A stretch of DNA of 64,000 bases from Escherichia coli (GCF_024502345.1 NZ_JALDNN010000001.1); one strand, 5' to 3'; counted from the first letter of the stretch, positions 2,304 to 54,599 are shown. The notes: generated by a model from the letters alone, not told the origin. Made by a program: numbers and translations.

Positions 2304-3245
2304 ATGGAAAAGAGAAAAATTATTCTGGATTGTGATCCGGGTCATGATGATGCTATTGCAATGATGATGGCAGCGAAACATCCGGCGATTGATTTATTAG
2401 GCATCACTATTGTAGCGGGTAATCAGACGCTTGATAAAACATTAATTAATGGCCTGAATGTTTGCCAGAAACTGGAGATTAATGTTCCGGTTTATGCGGG
2501 GATGCCGCAACCCATTATGCGTCAACAAATCGTTGCCGATAATATTCACGGTGAAACCGGACTGGATGGCCCGGTATTCGAGCCGCTGACCCGCCAGGCA
2601 GAAAGTACCCACGCGGTGAAATACATCATTGATACCCTGATGGCAAGCGATGGCGATATCACTCTGGTGCCGGTTGGTCCGCTTTCAAATATCGCGGTGG
2701 CAATGCGTATGCAACCCGCGATCCTGCCCAAAATCCGTGAAATTGTGCTAATGGGCGGCGCTTACGGTACAGGCAACTTCACGCCATCTGCCGAGTTCAA
2801 CATCTTTGCTGACCCGGAAGCCGCACGCGTGGTGTTCACCTCCGGCGTTCCATTAGTGATGATGGGCCTCGATCTTACCAACCAGACCGTTTGCACCCCG
2901 GACGTAATTGCTCGGATGGAAAGGGCAGGCGGCCCTGCCGGAGAGCTGTTCAGCGACATCATGAACTTCACTCTCAAAACGCAGTTCGAAAACTACGGCC
3001 TGGCTGGCGGCCCGGTGCACGACGCCACCTGCATCGGTTATCTGATTAACCCTGATGGCATTAAAACCCAGGAGATGTACGTCGAAGTGGACGTCAACAG
3101 TGGCCCTTGCTATGGGCGTACCGTCTGCGACGAGCTGGGCGTTCTTGGCAAGCCCGCTAATACCAAAGTCGGCATCACTATTGATACCGACTGGTTCTGG
3201 GGCTTAGTCGAAGAGTGCGTGCGCGGCTACATCAAAACCCATTAA
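2304..3245 (+). CDS. rihB: Pyrimidine-specific ribonucleoside hydrolase (IU-nucleoside hydrolase family), 313 aa
   Basis: ORF track; N-terminal DCDPGHDDA aspartate cluster typical of nucleoside hydrolases; synteny. Confidence 0.9.
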
Positions 3246-3344: not shown

Positions 3345-4595
3345 ATGGATGTCATGAGAAGTGTTCTGGGAATGGTGGTATTGCTGACGATTGCGTTTTT
3401 ACTGTCAGTAAACAAGAAGAAGATCAGCCTGCGTACCGTTGGCGCGGCGTTAGTGTTACAGGTCGTGATTGGCGGGATTATGCTTTGGTTACCGCCAGGG
3501 TGTTGGGTCGCTGAAAAAGTCGCTTTTGGCGTGCATAAAGTGATGGCGTACAGCGACGCGGGTAGCGCATTTATCTTCGGTTCGCTGGTCGGGCCGAAAA
3601 TGGACACGCTGTTTGATGGCGCAGGATTTATCTTTGGTTTCAGAGTGTTACCGGCAATTATCTTCGTCACCGCGCTGGTGAGTATTCTCTATTACATCGG
3701 TGTGATGGGGATCTTAATTCGCATTCTCGGCGGTATATTCCAGAAAGCATTAAATATCAGCAAGATCGAGTCATTCGTCGCGGTCACTACCATTTTCCTC
3801 GGGCAAAACGAAATTCCGGCAATCGTCAAACCCTTTATCGATCGTCTGAATCGCAATGAATTATTTACAGCGATTTGTAGTGGCATGGCCTCGATTGCTG
3901 GTTCGACAATGATTGGTTACGCCGCACTGGGCGTACCTGTGGAATATTTGCTGGCGGCATCGTTAATGGCGATCCCAGGCGGAATCTTGTTTGCCCGCCT
4001 GTTAAGCCCGGCTACGGAATCTTCGCAGGTTTCTTTTAATAACCTCTCTTTCACCGAAACACCGCCAAAAAGCATTATTGAAGCCGCCGCGACAGGGGCA
4101 ATGACCGGGCTGAAAATCGCCGCAGGTGTGGCGACAGTAGTGATGGCATTTGTCGCCATCATTGCGTTAATTAACGGTATTATCGGCGGCGTTGGCGGCT
4201 GGTTTGGTTTTGAACATGCCTCGCTGGAGTCCATTTTAGGTTATCTGCTGGCCCCACTGGCGTGGGTAATGGGTGTTGACTGGAGTGATGCGAATCTTGC
4301 CGGGAGTTTGATTGGACAGAAACTGGCAATAAATGAATTTGTCGCTTATCTCAATTTCTCACCCTATCTGCAAACGGCTGGCACTCTGGATGCTAAAACC
4401 GTGGCGATTATTTCCTTCGCGTTGTGCGGTTTCGCTAACTTTGGTTCTATCGGGGTGGTGGTGGGGGCGTTTTCTGCGGTTGCACCACACCGTGCGCCGG
4501 AAATCGCCCAGCTTGGTTTACGCGCGCTGGCGGCGGCGACACTTTCTAACCTGATGAGTGCCACCATTGCCGGGTTCTTTATTGGTTTAGCGTAG
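3345..4595 (+). CDS. nupX: NupC-family nucleoside transporter, 416 aa; close paralog of the ORF at 155-1405
   Basis: ORF track; near-collinear similarity to psuT along the full length; position downstream of rihB. Confidence 0.85.
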   Translation: MDVMRSVLGMVVLLTIAFLLSVNKKKISLRTVGAALVLQVVIGGIMLWLPPGCWVAEKVAFGVHKVMAYSDAGSAFIFGSLVGPKMDTLFDGAGFIFGFRVLPAIIFVTALVSILYYIGVMGILIRILGGIFQKALNISKIESFVAVTTIFLGQNEIPAIVKPFIDRLNRNELFTAICSGMASIAGSTMIGYAALGVPVEYLLAASLMAIPGGILFARLLSPATESSQVSFNNLSFTETPPKSIIEAAATGAMTGLKIAAGVATVVMAFVAIIALINGIIGGVGGWFGFEHASLESILGYLLAPLAWVMGVDWSDANLAGSLIGQKLAINEFVAYLNFSPYLQTAGTLDAKTVAIISFALCGFANFGSIGVVVGAFSAVAPHRAPEIAQLGLRALAAATLSNLMSATIAGFFIGLA

Positions 4596-20743: not shown

Positions 20744-20917
20744 GTAGGCCGGATAAGGCGTTCACGCCGCATCCGGCGACAGGAGCCAAATGCCGGATGC
20801 AACGCTGGCGCGTTTTATCCGGCCTACAATGAGTTCAACATACTGATTTGTATGGTTTTGTAGGCCGGATAAGGCGTTCAAGCCGCATCCGGCGACAGGA
20901 ACTAAATGCCGGATGCG
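20744..20917. repeat. BIME: cluster of about 4 REP units in alternating orientation
   Basis: Repeated GCCGGATAAGGCGTTCACGCCGCATCCGGC and its reverse complement. Confidence 0.85.
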
Positions 20918-20926
20918 TCTCTGGTT

Positions 20927-22162
20927 TTACAACGTTACCGGGTGTTCTTTCTCGCCTTTCTTAAACTTCACTTCCCCGAGCTCAATACAACCCACCGGGC
21001 AGACGTGACCACAAAGCAGACAACCCACACATTTCTCGGTATTACAATGCGGTGTGCGGGTTTTCTCGCTCCATTCCATCGCCTGGTGACCGCCGTCGTA
21101 ACAGGAAATATAACAGCGTCCACAGCCAACACATTTATCAAGATTGATACGGGGATAGACAATATAACTGCGGTCTAAATCTTCCGCCGGGACAATATTG
21201 TTATTCGCCAGACCTACCATCTCCTGCAACGAATCAAATCCCTGATCGGCGAGATAATGCGATAACCCGCTCGCCATATCTTCTACGATGCGATAGCCGT
21301 ACTGCATAATGCCGGTGGTGACCTGTAACGTTGCTGCGCCGAGCAATAAAAACTCCGCCGCATCCTCCCAGGTTTCAATGCCGCCGATACCGCTGATTGG
21401 GAAATCGCGCAGTTCTGGATGGGTGCGCATTTGCTGAATGAAGCGCAGGGCGATCGGTTTTACCGCTTTACCGGAATATCCGGAAATACTCGATTTTCCG
21501 TTAACGATCGGCATACCGATTTTCTGATTAAGATCGATATTGGTGATGGATTTAACGGTGTTAATCGCCGCAATGCCATCTGCGCCGCCGCGCTTCGCCG
21601 CCAGCGCCACTTCGCACATATCACCGATATTCGGCGTCATCTTCGCCAGCATTGGCAGCGTGGAACCCCGTTTCACTGCCCGACAATATTTTTCTACCAG
21701 CTCCGGGCTTTGCCCGACATCGCTACCCATCGCATGAGAAGTCATTTGCGGACAGGAGAAGTTACACTCGATCATATCCGCGCCAGCTTCTTGCACCAGG
21801 CGCGCCAGCTCCTCCCATTGCTGCTCATTTTCCCCCATGATCGAAGCGATCAATACTTTGTCCGGGTAATCTTCCTTCAGCCGACGCAGGGCGGCCAGAT
21901 TCTCTTCCAACGGATGTTCAGCAATCTGCTCCATATTTTTGAAGCCGATAAAACCGGTATCTTCTTTCACCAGATGATCAAAACGCGGCGAGACTTCGTT
22001 GGCGATAAAAAAGCCGATCGTTTTAAACACCACACCGCCCCAACCTGTGTCGTAGGCTTTGGCACACATCTCATAGCAGTTGCCTACCGGCGAAGAAGAG
22101 AGGCAGAACGGGTTGGGAAACTTCACGCCGCAAAAAGTAATCGAAAGATCTTTCGTTAACAT
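20927..22162 (-). CDS. preA: NAD-dependent dihydropyrimidine dehydrogenase subunit PreA (411 aa from ATG 22162; ORF track TTG at 22168)
   Basis: ORF track; DHODH-like TIM barrel plus C-terminal 4Fe-4S ferredoxin cysteine clusters. Confidence 0.9.
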
Positions 22163-27166: not shown

Positions 27167-28117
27167 ATGCGTGTGTTACTGGCACCGATGGAGGGAGTGC
27201 TTGACTCTCTGGTGCGTGAATTGCTGACCGAAGTTAACGACTACGATCTGTGCATCACCGAGTTTGTCCGCGTGGTGGATCAACTGCTGCCGGTAAAAGT
27301 CTTTCATCGCATTTGCCCTGAGCTACAAAACGCCAGCCGGACACCATCTGGTACGCTGGTGCGCGTGCAGTTGTTAGGTCAGTTCCCACAATGGCTGGCA
27401 GAGAACGCCGCCCGTGCGGTGGAGTTAGGTTCCTGGGGCGTGGATCTCAATTGCGGCTGCCCGTCGACAACGGTTAACGGTAGCGGCGGCGGGGCGACGT
27501 TACTCAAAGATCCTGAACTCATCTACCAGGGGGCAAAAGCGATGCGTGAAGCTGTACCGGCGCATTTGCCTGTCAGCGTGAAAGTGCGTCTGGGCTGGGA
27601 CAGCGGTGAGAAGAAATTTGAAATCGCCGATGCGGTTCAACAGGCTGGCGCTACGGAGCTGGTGGTGCATGGGCGGACGAAAGAGCAGGGTTACCGCGCG
27701 GAGCATATTGACTGGCAGGCGATTGGCGAGATTCGCCAGCGGCTGAATATTCCGGTGATTGCCAACGGTGAAATCTGGGACTGGCAGAGCGCGCAACAAT
27801 GCATGGCGATCAGCGGCTGCGACGCAGTGATGATTGGTCGCGGGGCGCTCAATATTCCCAACCTGAGCCGGGTGGTAAAATATAACGAACCGCGAATGCC
27901 GTGGCCGGAGGTGGTTGCTTTGCTGCAAAAATATACCCGTCTGGAAAAGCAGGGCGATACCGGGTTATATCACGTAGCGCGGATTAAACAGTGGTTGAGT
28001 TATTTGCGTAAAGAATACGATGAAGCAACAGAATTATTTCAGCATGTTCGGGTGTTGAATAATTCCCATGATATTGCAAGGGCTATTCAGGCAATTGATA
28101 TCGATAAGCTGCGATAA
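27167..28117 (+). CDS. dusC: tRNA-dihydrouridine synthase C, 316 aa
   Basis: ORF track; Dus TIM-barrel with catalytic Cys in LNCGCP. Confidence 0.9.
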
Positions 28118-28138
28118 TAGTGGAATCGCAGCTTATCA
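28103..28138 (+). terminator. 12-bp perfect inverted repeat spanning the dusC stop codon
   Basis: GATAAGCTGCGA[16 protein letters not shown]; no T-tract, so terminator function uncertain. Confidence 0.3.
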
Positions 28139-28504
28139 GAGACAATGAATCGCTTATTCAGCTTCATCATCTTGTTGCGCTCCTTTCATGAACTAAGCCA
28201 CATATTGCCACTGGCGCAAGGTGCGCGCAGAGGGAGGACAATCGCCTCCTCCCCCTGCACCCCCGGGCTCTGGCGAACAAAATCGCCGCTGCGCGGTACC
28301 TTCAGCTTATCCCCTTCGGCTACCGGGTCGGGCGCGAGGTAACGTCCTTGTAAGACGCGCCCTCAGCCCACATCCATGTGGGCTGCCCCGGCCTTCGGGG
28401 AACGCTTCAGCGATTTTGACGCCACCAACACCGGAGCTGTTTGCAAATCAAGTACAAAAAATATCTAGTTCCTGACCTGACAACTTATATGCCATATCTG
28501 ATTT

Positions 28505-28588
28505 TTAAAATATCATCTTAAATACGCCAGTCACCACCAGTAGCCCAATCAGGAAAATAATCAATACAGCCCAGAGTATAATTTTCAT
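28505..28588 (-). CDS. yohP: 27-aa single-TM small membrane protein MKIILWAVLIIFLIGLLVVTGVFKMIF
   Basis: Not in ORF track (below length cutoff); ATG preceded by AAGGAA SD; peptide matches E. coli YohP as I recall it. Confidence 0.6.
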   Translation of the reverse strand: MKIILWAVLIIFLIGLLVVTGVFKMIF

Positions 28589-28736
28589 TGGCGTTCCTTT
28601 ATTTGTGAGTGCTGAATAAGTATAGGAAAAAACGAAGCCCTTCGCTGTCATTTATAAGTGATTAAGATAAATCGGAGAATATCATTCACTTAGTCTATAT
28701 TTTTCTGGGTATGTCGTTTTATTGCTACTGATGTAT

Positions 28737-28745
28737 TGCCACGCG
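28737..28745. repeat. Left copy of 9-bp target-site duplication TGCCACGCG flanking IS1
   Basis: Identical 9-mer directly abuts both IS1 ends. Confidence 0.9.
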
Positions 28746-28800
28746 GGTGATGCTGCCAACTTACTGATTTAGTGTATGATGGTGTTTTTGAGGTGCTCCA

Positions 28801-29076
28801 GTGGCTTCTGTTTCTATCAGCTGTCCCTCCTGTTCAGCTACTGACGGGGTGGTGCGTAACGGCAAAAGCACCGCCGGACATCAGCGCTATCTCTGCTCTC
28901 ACTGCCGTAAAACATGGCAACTGCAGTTCACTTACACCGCTTCTCAACCCGGTACGCACCAGAAAATCATTGATATGGCCATGAATGGCGTTGGATGCCG
29001 GGCAACCGCCCGCATTATGGGCGTTGGCCTCAACACGATTTTCCGCCATTTAAAAAACTCAGGCCGCAGTCGGTAA
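28801..29076 (+). CDS. insA: IS1 InsA (transposition inhibitor / N-terminal part of InsAB' transposase), 91 aa
   Basis: ORF track; zinc-finger CPSC...CSHC; inside IS1. Confidence 0.95.
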
Positions 29077-29498
29077 CCTCGCGCATACAGCCGGGCAGTG
29101 ACGTCATCGTCTGCGCGGAAATGGACGAACAGTGGGGATACGTCGGGGCTAAATCGCGCCAGCGCTGGCTGTTTTACGCGTATGACAGGCTCCGGAAGAC
29201 GGTTGTTGCGCACGTATTCGGTGAACGCACTATGGCGACGCTGGGGCGTCTTATGAGCCTGCTGTCACCCTTTGACGTGGTGATATGGATGACGGATGGC
29301 TGGCCGCTGTATGAATCCCGCCTGAAGGGAAAGCTGCACGTAATCAGCAAGCGATATACGCAGCGAATTGAGCGGCATAACCTGAATCTGAGGCAGCACC
29401 TGGCACGGCTGGGACGGAAGTCGCTGTCGTTCTCAAAATCGGTGGAGCTGCATGACAAAGTCATCGGGCATTATCTGAACATAAAACACTATCAATAA
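28995..29498 (+). CDS. insB: IS1 InsB reading frame (expressed as InsAB' by -1 frameshift at TTAAAAAAC near 29048-29056)
   Basis: ORF track frame overlapping insA 3' end in the -1 frame. Confidence 0.9.
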
Positions 29499-29513
29499 GT
29501 TGGAGTCATTACC

Positions 29514-29522
29514 TGCCACGCG
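29514..29522. repeat. Right copy of 9-bp target-site duplication TGCCACGCG
   Basis: See left copy. Confidence 0.9.
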
Positions 29523-29588
29523 AAACTAAAAAATATATCGCAACACACGGTAATCTCCGCGCACCGTTTCTTACCTGATTATTCCCCC

Positions 29589-31025
29589 ATGAATCGTGAT
29601 TCCTTTTATCCAGCCATCGCCTGTTTTCCGCTGTTACTGATGCTGGCCGGGTGTGCGCCTATGCATGAAACCCGCCAGGCGTTAAGCCAGCAAACGCCCG
29701 CTGCACAAGTTGACACCGCATTACCCACGGCGCTGAAAAATGGTTGGCCAGACAGCCAATGGTGGCTGGAGTATCACGATAATCAGCTCACTTCATTAAT
29801 TAACAATGCACTACAGAACGCACCGGATATGCAGGTGGCTGAACAGCGCATTCAGCTAGCTGAAGCCCAGGCGAAGGCAGTTGCCACTCAGGATGGTCCG
29901 CAGATCGACTTTTCGGCGGATATGGAGCGGCAAAAAATGTCGGCAGAAGGGCTAATGGGGCCGTTTGCTCTGAACGATCCGGCCGCAGGTACGACCGGTC
30001 CGTGGTACACCAACGGAACTTTTGGCTTAACGGCGGGCTGGCATCTCGATATCTGGGGAAAGAATCGGGCGGAGGTTACTGCCCGCCTGGGTACGGTTAA
30101 AGCACGGGCGGCGGAACGCGAGCAAACCCGCCAATTGCTGGCTGGCAGCGTAGCCCGCCTGTACTGGGAGTGGCAAACCCAGGCGGCGTTAAACACGGTC
30201 TTGCAGCAAATAGAAAAAGAGCAGAACACCATTATCGCGACCGATCGCCAGCTATATCAGAACGGGATTACTTCTTCAGTTGACGGTGTGGAAACCGATA
30301 TTAATGCCAGCAAAACCCGGCAGCAGCTCAACGATGTCGCGGGGAAAATGAAAATTATTGAGGCACGGTTAAGCGCACTTACAAATCACCAGACAAAGTC
30401 ATTGAAGCTTAAACCGGTCGCGTTGCCGAAAGTGGCAAGCCAGCTTCCTGATGAACTGGGGTACTCCTTACTGGCCCGGCGGGCAGATTTGCAGGCGGCG
30501 CACTGGTACGTTGAGTCATCGCTAAGCACCATTGATGCGGCAAAAGCGGCATTTTATCCTGACATCAACCTGATGGCCTTCCTGCAACAGGATGCGTTGC
30601 ACTTAAGCGATCTGTTCCGTCATTCCGCGCAGCAAATGGGCGTTACGGCAGGCCTGACGCTACCTATTTTCGATAGTGGTCGTCTTAACGCCAATCTCGA
30701 TATCGCAAAAGCCGAAAGCAACTTGTCTATCGCCAGCTACAACAAAGCGGTGGTTGAAGCGGTGAATGACGTGGCGCGGGCAGCCAGTCAGGTTCAGACA
30801 CTTGCGGAGAAAAACCAGCATCAGGCGCAAATTGAGCGCGATGCCTTGCGTGTGGTAGGTCTTGCGCAGGCGCGCTTTAACGCGGGCATCATTGCTGGTT
30901 CCCGCGTCAGCGAAGCCAGAATCCCCGCGCTGCGTGAGCGGGCCAATGGCCTGTTATTGCAAGGGCAGTGGCTGGATGCTTCCATTCAACTCACTGGTGC
31001 GTTGGGCGGGGGTTACAAACGCTGA
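29589..31025 (+). CDS. mdtQ: Outer-membrane efflux lipoprotein of the NodT/OprM (TolC-like) family, 478 aa, apparently intact
   Basis: ORF track; signal peptide with lipobox LLMLAGC; synteny. Confidence 0.8.
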   Translation: MNRDSFYPAIACFPLLLMLAGCAPMHETRQALSQQTPAAQVDTALPTALKNGWPDSQWWLEYHDNQLTSLINNALQNAPDMQVAEQRIQLAEAQAKAVATQDGPQIDFSADMERQKMSAEGLMGPFALNDPAAGTTGPWYTNGTFGLTAGWHLDIWGKNRAEVTARLGTVKARAAEREQTRQLLAGSVARLYWEWQTQAALNTVLQQIEKEQNTIIATDRQLYQNGITSSVDGVETDINASKTRQQLNDVAGKMKIIEARLSALTNHQTKSLKLKPVALPKVASQLPDELGYSLLARRADLQAAHWYVESSLSTIDAAKAAFYPDINLMAFLQQDALHLSDLFRHSAQQMGVTAGLTLPIFDSGRLNANLDIAKAESNLSIASYNKAVVEAVNDVARAASQVQTLAEKNQHQAQIERDALRVVGLAQARFNAGIIAGSRVSEARIPALRERANGLLLQGQWLDASIQLTGALGGGYKR

Positions 31026-33353: not shown

Positions 33354-33477
33354 TTCCTCACGATTCTCCTTTGACGATCGCACTTTTTGCTCGTTATGAT
33401 GGCGTCGCTAGCCTCAGTAAATCCTTACTCCGGCGGTGCGCAACCCGTGCGCGTGAACCACTATCTGAATGCTCATC

Positions 33478-53908: not shown

Positions 53909-53991
53909 AAAAAAACCTGCTGGTGAGGCAGGTTCTTTTATTTACTATTTTCAGGCCTAACACCACAGCCTGTGCAACATCGTGTTCCAAC
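53909..53991 (-). ncRNA. orzP: Predicted ~80-nt divergent small RNA (OrzO/OrzP-like antitoxin RNA), copy A
   Basis: Minus-strand promoter (-35 TTGCAA 54021-54026, 17-bp spacer, -10 TATAAT 53998-54003); minus-strand intrinsic terminator (stem ACCTGC/GCAGGT then U7) at 53909-53934; 5' region repeats leader sequence at 54138-54157. Confidence 0.5.
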
Positions 53992-54518: not shown

Positions 54519-54599
54519 AAAAAAACCTGCTGGTGAGGCAGGTTCTTTTATTTACTACAGTGACGCTAACTTGCTGATTGTGCAACATTTCGTACCAAC
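54519..54599 (-). ncRNA. orzO: Predicted ~80-nt divergent small RNA, copy B
   Basis: Minus-strand -10 TATAAT (54606-54611) and shared -35 TTGCAA (54629-54634); terminator hairpin plus U7 at 54519-54543; 18-nt complementarity (one G-U) to leader at 54749-54766. Confidence 0.5.

Follow-up and report, generated by a model that had tools for sequence, protein, structure and literature searches.

The stretch of Escherichia coli DNA analysed here, a window of 64,000 nucleotides, contains dusC and yohP as convergent genes, and the interval between them holds a GC-rich, palindrome-rich element (Table 1). The GC content is 0.66 over nt 28200–28400 and 0.34–0.42 in the flanks, in agreement with a sequence-only reading that had called about 220 bp here unusually GC-rich. 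That reading placed the element at nt 28225–28445, which covers the GC-rich core, but the repeat unit is slightly larger, about nt 28167–28448. The short palindromes it listed were recovered: GGAGG...CCTCC lies inside the 12-bp-arm hairpin, GGGCGCG...CGCGCCC forms hairpin H2, and GCCCACAT-CC-ATGTGGGC falls within hairpin H1. CCCCG-GCCTT-CGGGG is also present, at nt 28386–28400, but covariation prefers a long-range pairing of nt 28397–28401 with nt 28310–28314. A longer-range inverted repeat joins nt 28278–28293 with nt 28403–28418.

Mechanical open reading frames span the element, for example an 84-residue frame at nt 28221–28475, and a protein-coding reading was considered and rejected, as no Pfam match was found among the four frames crossing the element. 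The homologues are found in either orientation and carry 1-, 2- and 11-nt indels, and their substitutions keep base pairs rather than codons. That the element encodes a small protein is effectively refuted, in line with the sequence-only reading, which had seen no convincing coding potential. The Rfam scan proposed with the sequence-only reading gave no family at gathering score within the element.

Table 1. Features of the dusC–yohP interval (window positions; strand where one is assigned)
Feature	Position	Strand	Remarks
TRIP1c/RRS-dusC repeat unit	28167–28448	−	G-rich, G4-forming, better-folding strand is the window minus strand; paralogues share about 28171–28448
Equivalent of the K-12 222-bp RRS core	28209–28428	−	alignment A2; 91.8% identity to both K-12 copies
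G-quadruplex (G4)-forming tract GGGGGTGCAGGGGGAGGAGG (K-12: GGGGGTGCAGGGGGCGGCGG)	28245–28264	−	G runs all kept
12-bp-arm hairpin overlapping the G4 tract	28227–28258		inverted repeat I3; 7 compensatory pairs across genera
Hairpin H2, minus-strand loop CA-A-GGA-C-G	28330–28362		GGGCGCG...CGCGCCC
Hairpin H1, CAGCCCACAT-CC-ATGTGGGCTG, minus-strand loop CAUGGAUG	28364–28385		inverted repeat I4; 10-bp arms, 100% complementary
5′ arm (minus strand) of long closing stem P1	28402–28428		pairs with 28270–28294; inverted repeat I2
3′ arm (minus strand) of closing stem P1	28270–28294		pairs with 28402–28428
Terminal module GCGCTCC	28177–28183		helix 12; pairs with 28220–28226; minus strand reads GGAGCGC then AAC
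Direct repeat CCCCGG..GAAC (D1)	28261–28278	+	partner 28386–28403
dusC, flanking gene	27167–28117	+	stop codon 50 nt from the element
yohP, convergent flanking gene	28505–28588	−	element's G-rich strand is sense, 56 nt downstream

Several features near the element were also recorded. A perfect 13-bp-arm hairpin, GATAAGCTGCGAT/ATCGCAGCTTATC, at nt 28103–28137 overlaps the dusC stop codon and occurs only in the allele type of the window. DusC ends ...DIDKLR* here and ...DIEKL* in K-12, placing an allelic break point inside the last dusC codons. On the minus strand, at nt 28087–28170, the element's near-invariant terminal GGAGCGCAAC, with a Shine-Dalgarno-like AGGAG, is followed by ATGATG and a 27-codon frame; the AGGAG can pair with the upstream GCGCUCC. 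Several other Escherichia copies have an ATG within a few bases of GGAGCGCAAC, opening frames of 3–27 codons that differ in sequence, and the 27-codon frame is probably not a gene. The interval from yohP to mdtQ contains a complete IS1 at nt 28747–29514, with the 9-bp target-site duplication TGCCACGCG on its two sides (nt 28738–28746 and 29515–29523). The K-12 yohP–mdtQ interval has no IS, and the IS1 junction occurs as one collinear match in none of the complete E. coli genomes. As these genomes also give no 100% match to the element, the window may come from a Shigella or from a strain that the collection does not sample. Farther away, OrzO-P antitoxin RNA matches at nt 53909–53984 (99.9 bits) and 54519–54592 (88.8 bits), both minus strand and well above gathering score, mark a tandem zor-orz type I toxin-antitoxin locus, which is not known from K-12. 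A REP pair (naRNA4) was matched at nt 20747–20824 with 85.8 bits, and at nt 33393–33473 a Peptidase-S11 RNA leader with 72.8 bits; these are features of the ordinary annotated type.

Judged by its sequence, the dusC–yohP element is TRIP1c, or RRS-dusC, and is thus already known. The TRIP1 repeats were named by Rudd (1999) and surveyed by Li et al. (2024, PMC10888264), who list loci a (aqpZ-ybjE), b (putP-ycdN), c (yohI(dusC)-yohG(mdtQ)), d (alx-sstT) and e (copA-ybaP), and give 2952 forward and 2789 reverse copies of TRIP1c. The RRS, or "replication risk sequence", is described in a separate group of papers (Pham 2023, PMC10287960; Pham 2024, PMC11194060; Kusi-Appauh 2026, PMC13308219). TRIP1a is RRS-lysO and TRIP1c is RRS-dusC; the two literatures have so far stood apart and are joined here. 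The identification follows from the match to K-12, the same flanking genes, and paralogues at the TRIP1a and TRIP1d loci. Window nt 28167–28428 align with the K-12 dusC–yohP element in an ungapped, inverted match of 262 nt with 88.5% identity. The RRS core was defined in K-12 as 222 bp (PMC11194060) and was compared here as columns 55–277 of alignment A2. The window core agrees with either K-12 copy at 202 of 220 positions (91.8%), and the two K-12 cores are 99.1% identical to each other. The location is that of TRIP1c, with dusC and yohP at the sides and mdtQ starting at nt 29589. The window copy shares with the TRIP1c of Li et al. the locus, 88–92% identity, the 273-bp length class, the GC content (62–65% in TRIP1/RRS) and the paralogous loci; it differs from the K-12 copy in its opposite direction and in the IS1 between yohP and mdtQ. 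Compared with RRS-dusC and RRS-lysO, the GC-rich foldable core is retained and the G4 tract is the same bar two spacer bases, but the orientation to the fork is reversed, making the window copy the natural counterpart of the engineered "inverted RRS".

At both RRS loci of K-12, the strand with the G4 tract serves as lagging-strand template. In vitro the RRS blocks Pol I, II and IV, and in vivo it hinders Pol III; fork passage over it leaves lagging-strand ssDNA gaps of 0.3–2 kb that are bound by RecA and SSB. Deletion or inversion of both RRS alters supercoiling genome-wide. In an engineered inverted RRS the RecA/SSB peak is absent in vivo; in single-molecule assays with the complementary strand as lagging template, gaps form in about 66% of encounters and are smaller (PMC10287960, PMC11194060, PMC13308219). 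At least one RRS copy is conditionally essential in K-12 (PMC11194060). The RRS lies about 650 kb from dif and is paired with an inverted copy across Ter, according to the TRIP1/RRS literature. The triggering of post-replication gaps is an experimentally demonstrated function at the DNA level (PMC10287960, PMC11194060, PMC13308219) which the sequence-only reading, with its proposal of a repeat or an RNA, had missed.

The G4 tract of the window, GGGGGTGCAGGGGGAGGAGG, differs from the published K-12 motif GGGGGTGCAGGGGGCGGCGG (PMC11194060) by two C-to-A spacer changes, with every G run intact. The overlapping 25-nt window at nt 28240–28264 has a G4Hunter score of −1.92, the strongest in the whole 64 kb, and no G4Hunter window on the element's plus strand reaches the 1.2 threshold; the element thus has a single G4 tract, on the minus strand. 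Relative to K-12 the element is inverted: the block nt 28167–28428 matches the opposite strand, while the flanks nt 28073–28110 and 28489–28540 are collinear. The spacers between block and flanks, nt 28111–28166 (56 nt) and 28429–28488 (60 nt), are unrelated to the K-12 spacers, which rules out a simple in-place inversion. The plus strand shows positive GC skew in each of the eight 8-kb blocks of the window, which marks it as the leading strand, in agreement with synteny to K-12. As the G-rich strand is the minus strand, the G4 strand serves here as the leading-strand template and the C-rich strand as the lagging-strand template. The arrangement called native in K-12, with the G4 strand as lagging-strand template, is therefore absent from the window copy. 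The reversed orientation is an allele state and no bar to TRIP1/RRS membership, Li et al. (2024) having counted both directions.

The reversed allele is common. The dusC–yohP configuration of the window was found in 1998 of the 5426 complete E. coli genomes; in nearly all of the others only the two flanks are collinear, as in K-12. The K-12 "native" orientation at dusC is thus found in only about 63% of the complete genomes. The window-type allele also occurs in E. whittamii, Escherichia sp. E1V33 and E. coli E69, and the K-12 type in other Escherichia lineages. At aqpZ–lysO, 4026/5426 genomes are K-12-like, and the others are reversed (e.g. O157:H7) or internally deleted. O157:H7 Sakai has exactly two TRIP1/RRS places by blastn, at aqpZ–ybjE (nt 21100–21390 of locus record L104) and at NC_002695.2 nt 2958149–2958429. 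Reading these loci directly shows the G-rich strand as leading-strand template in both, which makes Sakai a natural "double inverted RRS" strain. In E. coli E69 both recovered copies, at aqpZ–lysO and dusC–yohP, are reversed as well, while in CFT073 and ST131 the reversal is confined to TRIP1c. Li et al. (PMC10888264) gave direction counts and left their relation to replication aside, and the RRS papers (PMC10287960, PMC11194060, PMC13308219) took the K-12 orientation as native. Given the 1998 window-type genomes and the reversed copies of Sakai and E69, a lagging-template G4 cannot be the arrangement that is selected universally.

A BLAST search for further copies found the family in 5425 of the 5426 complete E. 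coli genomes, at a median of 3 and a range of 1–10 places per genome, none of them annotated. The other E. coli copies include the aqpZ–lysO and alx–sstT intergenic regions, which are the TRIP1a and TRIP1d loci. The 64-kb window holds no second copy, and the complete E. coli genome collection holds no 100% match to the window element. The suggestion of an extragenic repeat outside the REP and ERIC classes is thus borne out by repeated copies at defined intergenic loci, and the identity as TRIP1 leaves no need for a comparison with the 127-bp ERIC consensus. The sole naRNA4 match of the window lies at the REP pair mentioned above, with none at the element. REP/BIME sequences (naRNA4, RF02564) resemble it in being GC-rich, palindromic and intergenic, often between convergent genes, and in their proposed nucleoid-topology roles; the element differs in being much longer and multi-hairpin, in its far fewer copies, and in having no sequence or model match to them. 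The pilE G4 of Neisseria gonorrhoeae (PMC11194060) is unrelated in sequence, and its role is in antigenic variation rather than the proposed topology.

Outside Escherichia, PLSDB yielded homologues in Klebsiella pneumoniae, K. aerogenes, K. variicola and Citrobacter freundii, on mislabelled chromosomal pieces. The Klebsiella homologues are 79–84% identical over the core, and that of Citrobacter freundii is a weaker, partial match (75.5% over half of the query). A single K. pneumoniae record of 5.37 Mb has 14 places. Eleven Klebsiella and Citrobacter loci lie at unrelated intergenic sites (e.g. yfaE–glpQ, rimO–HTH regulator, sstT–uxaA and yeiP–torD), and 8 of the 9 annotated on both sides are between convergent genes. 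No match to the element was found in the phage collection, and the plasmid matches look like chromosomal fragments. The family therefore consists of GC-rich intergenic repeats of about 270 bp, near-universal in Escherichia and present also in Klebsiella and Citrobacter.

An exact 18-mer of the element, GCGGCGATTTTGTTCGCC, was scanned through 100,044 species genomes and was found, among enterobacteria, in Escherichia only; for this block, the published description of the sequence as nearly identical throughout the enterobacteria goes too far. The 18-mer also occurs in about 80 contigs of Verrucomicrobia, Kiritimatiellae, Planctomycetes, Acidobacteria and Armatimonadetes. These non-enterobacterial matches are probably a conserved coding motif, read in the frame AAILFA and unrelated to TRIP1; we take this frame to be typical of prepilin-type N-terminal domains.

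The fold of nt 28171–28448 was evaluated against 200 dinucleotide-preserving shuffles. As single-stranded DNA, the minus strand folds at −71 kcal/mol (z −4.50) and the plus strand at −64.1 kcal/mol (z −4.76). Folded as RNA, the minus strand reaches −137.1 kcal/mol (z −5.10) and the plus strand −116.5 kcal/mol (z −4.13), so that the minus strand is the more stable by 20 kcal/mol. None of the 200 shuffles was as stable, for either strand, as DNA or as RNA. In a 20-copy Escherichia alignment, the RNAalifold consensus has 98.8% of cells paired and 7 compensatory pairs. With Klebsiella and Citrobacter added, to 26 sequences (alignment A5), 27 of 75 pairs are compensatory; shuffled alignments give 10.0±1.7, with 0/500 reaching 27, and slid controls give 4–8. 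Compensation occurs in every major helix, namely the closing stem, H1 (5 pairs), H2, a small hairpin and the hairpin overlapping the G4 tract (7 pairs). Closing stem P1 is present in both the DNA and the RNA minimum-energy folds, and covariation is seen in helices 1–2 of A5. Among the pairs of the G4-overlapping hairpin are two in which the window itself has exchanged C-G for A-T. K. aerogenes has interruptions in its G5 runs (GGGAGTACAGAGGG), and the opposite hairpin arm has changed so as to compensate. Covariation across genera thus supports the entire multi-hairpin fold, and with it the hairpin in competition with the G4. The terminal module GCGCTCC is near-invariant in all genera examined, and the GGAGCGCAA block is highly conserved in A5.

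The loops stay constant across the 26 copies while the stems covary. The H1 loop CAUGGAUG is found in 26/26 copies and the H2 loop CA-N-GGA-Y-G (N, any base) in 25/26, one copy lacking the N. On the G-rich strand, the 26 copies contain 88 G·U cells in 16 pairs versus 3 A·C cells in 3 pairs, an asymmetry inflated to some degree by prediction of the structure on the G-rich strand. Within Escherichia alone the strand asymmetry is weak (13 vs 5 pairs, p 0.048) and biased by structure prediction on the same strand. The excess of G·U indicates that it is the fold of the G-rich strand that is maintained, either as single-stranded DNA (with G·T) or as RNA.

Direct repeats D1 are likely the end points of an internal deletion that gives short forms resembling TRIP1b. 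In plasmid pZ1323HEC0475-2 (nt 2940–3030 of locus record L004), a copy of the element has the two-hairpin core deleted and the CCCCGG direct repeats joined. This 42-kb "plasmid" carries the chromosomal segment hcr-hcp-lysO-aqpZ-ybjD-ybjX. In S88-type chromosomes some aqpZ–lysO copies are likewise core-deleted, in a short TRIP1b-like form. The alx–sstT interval of K-12 (nt 3547–3944 of locus record L105), where CE10 has its TRIP1d, holds a different GC-rich palindromic sequence, …CTCTCCCTTCCAGGGAGAGGGTCGGGGTGAGGG…CCCTCACCC…, presumably of another repeat family, possibly Box C. This intergenic spot seems to collect different repeats. As for the relation between copies, the window TRIP1c core shares 95.9% identity with the reversed TRIP1a of STEC313 and 91.8% with K-12 TRIP1c (A2, columns 55–277), and in A2 a common genome or orientation class makes copies more alike than a common locus does. 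Such grouping suggests that gene conversion has acted between loci separated by 1.3 Mb.

A selfish or neutral repeat of MITE or REP type, spread and flipped by a recombinase or transposase that recognises hairpins, with the replication effects as a by-product, would agree with the 1–10 places per E. coli genome and the 14 in one Klebsiella record, the unrelated intergenic sites, and the two orientations at one locus. It would also fit the concerted evolution within genomes, of which the nearly identical K-12 pair is an example, and the internal deletions between direct repeats 28261–28278 and 28386–28403. However, terminal inverted repeats and target-site duplications were looked for and none was found, no transposase is known in association, phage copies are lacking and the plasmid matches look chromosomal. 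Moreover, the "empty" K-12 alx–sstT site is not a clean excision, as it holds a different GC-rich sequence, the unrelated spacers beside the two dusC–yohP alleles allow no simple flip in place, and at least one K-12 copy is conditionally essential (PMC11194060). A mobile repeat of this kind is unlikely, though it deserves to be kept in mind. Termination of dusC and yohP transcription from both sides is suggested by strong GC hairpins between convergent genes, but no site combining a hairpin with a T-run exists on either strand in nt 27950–28800, where shuffles average 0.8, and the element is also located between co-directional genes. A bidirectional terminator is very improbable and was rejected; no promoter or terminator signal at the element exceeds chance.

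A structured RNA, in which the G-rich strand is transcribed as a 3′ UTR (of yohP here, of dusC in K-12), seems doubtful, and so do its particular versions, in which two GGA loops would be offered to an RNA-binding protein, for example CsrA, or the fold would protect the upstream mRNA against 3′ exonucleases as in REP. In the window the G-rich strand is sense downstream of yohP, with no terminator-like site in the 56 nt between, and its RNA fold is the more stable of the two by 20 kcal/mol. The invariant loops in covarying stems, the G·U cells outnumbering A·C cells by 88 to 3 (in 16 vs 3 pairs), and the convergent genes around 8 of 9 annotated Klebsiella and Citrobacter loci can be read in the same way. 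But folded single-stranded DNA tolerates G·T wobbles too, and the asymmetry fits a DNA model equally; a convergent intergenic preference is typical of any tolerated repeat; and the G-rich strand of K-12 TRIP1a is antisense to both neighbours, leaving no consistent transcriptional context. In a permissive Rfam search, TwoAYGGAY (RF01731) was the top match for the window (28.4 bits) and for five other Escherichia copies; wherever an Escherichia copy gave a match, this was the best, and each time it fell on the G-rich strand. The scores of 26.6–38.3 bits lie below the gathering threshold of 43 throughout, with the full model aligned in 5 of 6, and no match at E≤1 was found in six Klebsiella and Citrobacter loci. 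An assignment to TwoAYGGAY was therefore rejected, and the resemblance serves as a lead only.

The resemblance itself is one of architecture. TwoAYGGAY (Weinberg 2010) has a long closing stem round two hairpins with (A)YGGAY-type loops, and is multi-copy in some gamma-proteobacteria; the Psychromonas seed sequences of Weinberg are multi-copy and include ACAGGGACGU loops. In the element the long P1 is present, the H1 loop AUGGAU fits AYGGAY, and the H2 loop AAGGAC fits loosely, the second loop being A-N-GGA-Y instead of AYGGAY. Two A-N-GGA loops about 26 nt apart are sequence features of CsrA type, and TwoAYGGAY has been proposed to bind CsrA (Gardner and Eldai, PMC4333381). Nothing relevant was found in the literature on CsrA with dusC, lysO or aqpZ. 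A simple roadblock leaves the invariant hairpin loops unexplained. In another view, the selected feature would be the strand-specific multi-hairpin fold, and not a lagging-template G4 at the Ter borders; the two invariant A-N-GGA loops would be read by a trans-acting factor that binds RNA or single-stranded DNA. We consider this view rather improbable.

The preferred reading is that the element is TRIP1c/RRS-dusC and acts at the DNA level as in K-12, where folding of the unwound lagging template leads to post-replication gaps; we assign it a probability of about 0.85. The identity, the locus, the orientation, the retention of the G4 tract and the evolutionarily conserved fold were established in the present analysis, while gap formation and the topology effects are taken from the literature, in which gap triggering was measured in K-12 and in vitro. 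In the K-12 arrangement, the replication fork unwinds the element, and the exposed lagging-strand template forms a G-quadruplex and several hairpins. The lagging-strand polymerase then stalls and primes anew downstream, and a transient single-stranded gap of 0.3–2 kb stays behind, on which SSB and RecA are loaded. According to the published proposal, such gaps may serve to ease topological stress at the Ter macrodomain borders. In the window allele the weaker, C-rich strand is exposed on the lagging template and the G4 strand lies on the leading one. From the published work it may be inferred that gaps at this natural inverted allele are less frequent and smaller, or do not form. The up to 14 copies of Klebsiella at unrelated loci do not fit a role specific to the Ter borders.

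The finding itself is the rediscovery of a named element and in that respect ordinary, and what is added to the literature is modest: the frequency and lineages of reversed copies in relation to replication, the covariation across genera with the G4 hairpin included, the constancy of the A-N-GGA loops, and the scattered copies of Klebsiella. The element is of current interest, as no bacterial chromosomal sequence before the RRS had been proposed to programme post-replication gaps. If a trans-acting factor does read the fold and its loops, the family would be a dispersed structured element that in nature may face the fork either way, and the gaps formed in K-12 would be one consequence of the fold and not its purpose. 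The reversed copies, the covarying fold and the invariant loops thus bear on which structure, and which strand, selection acts on.
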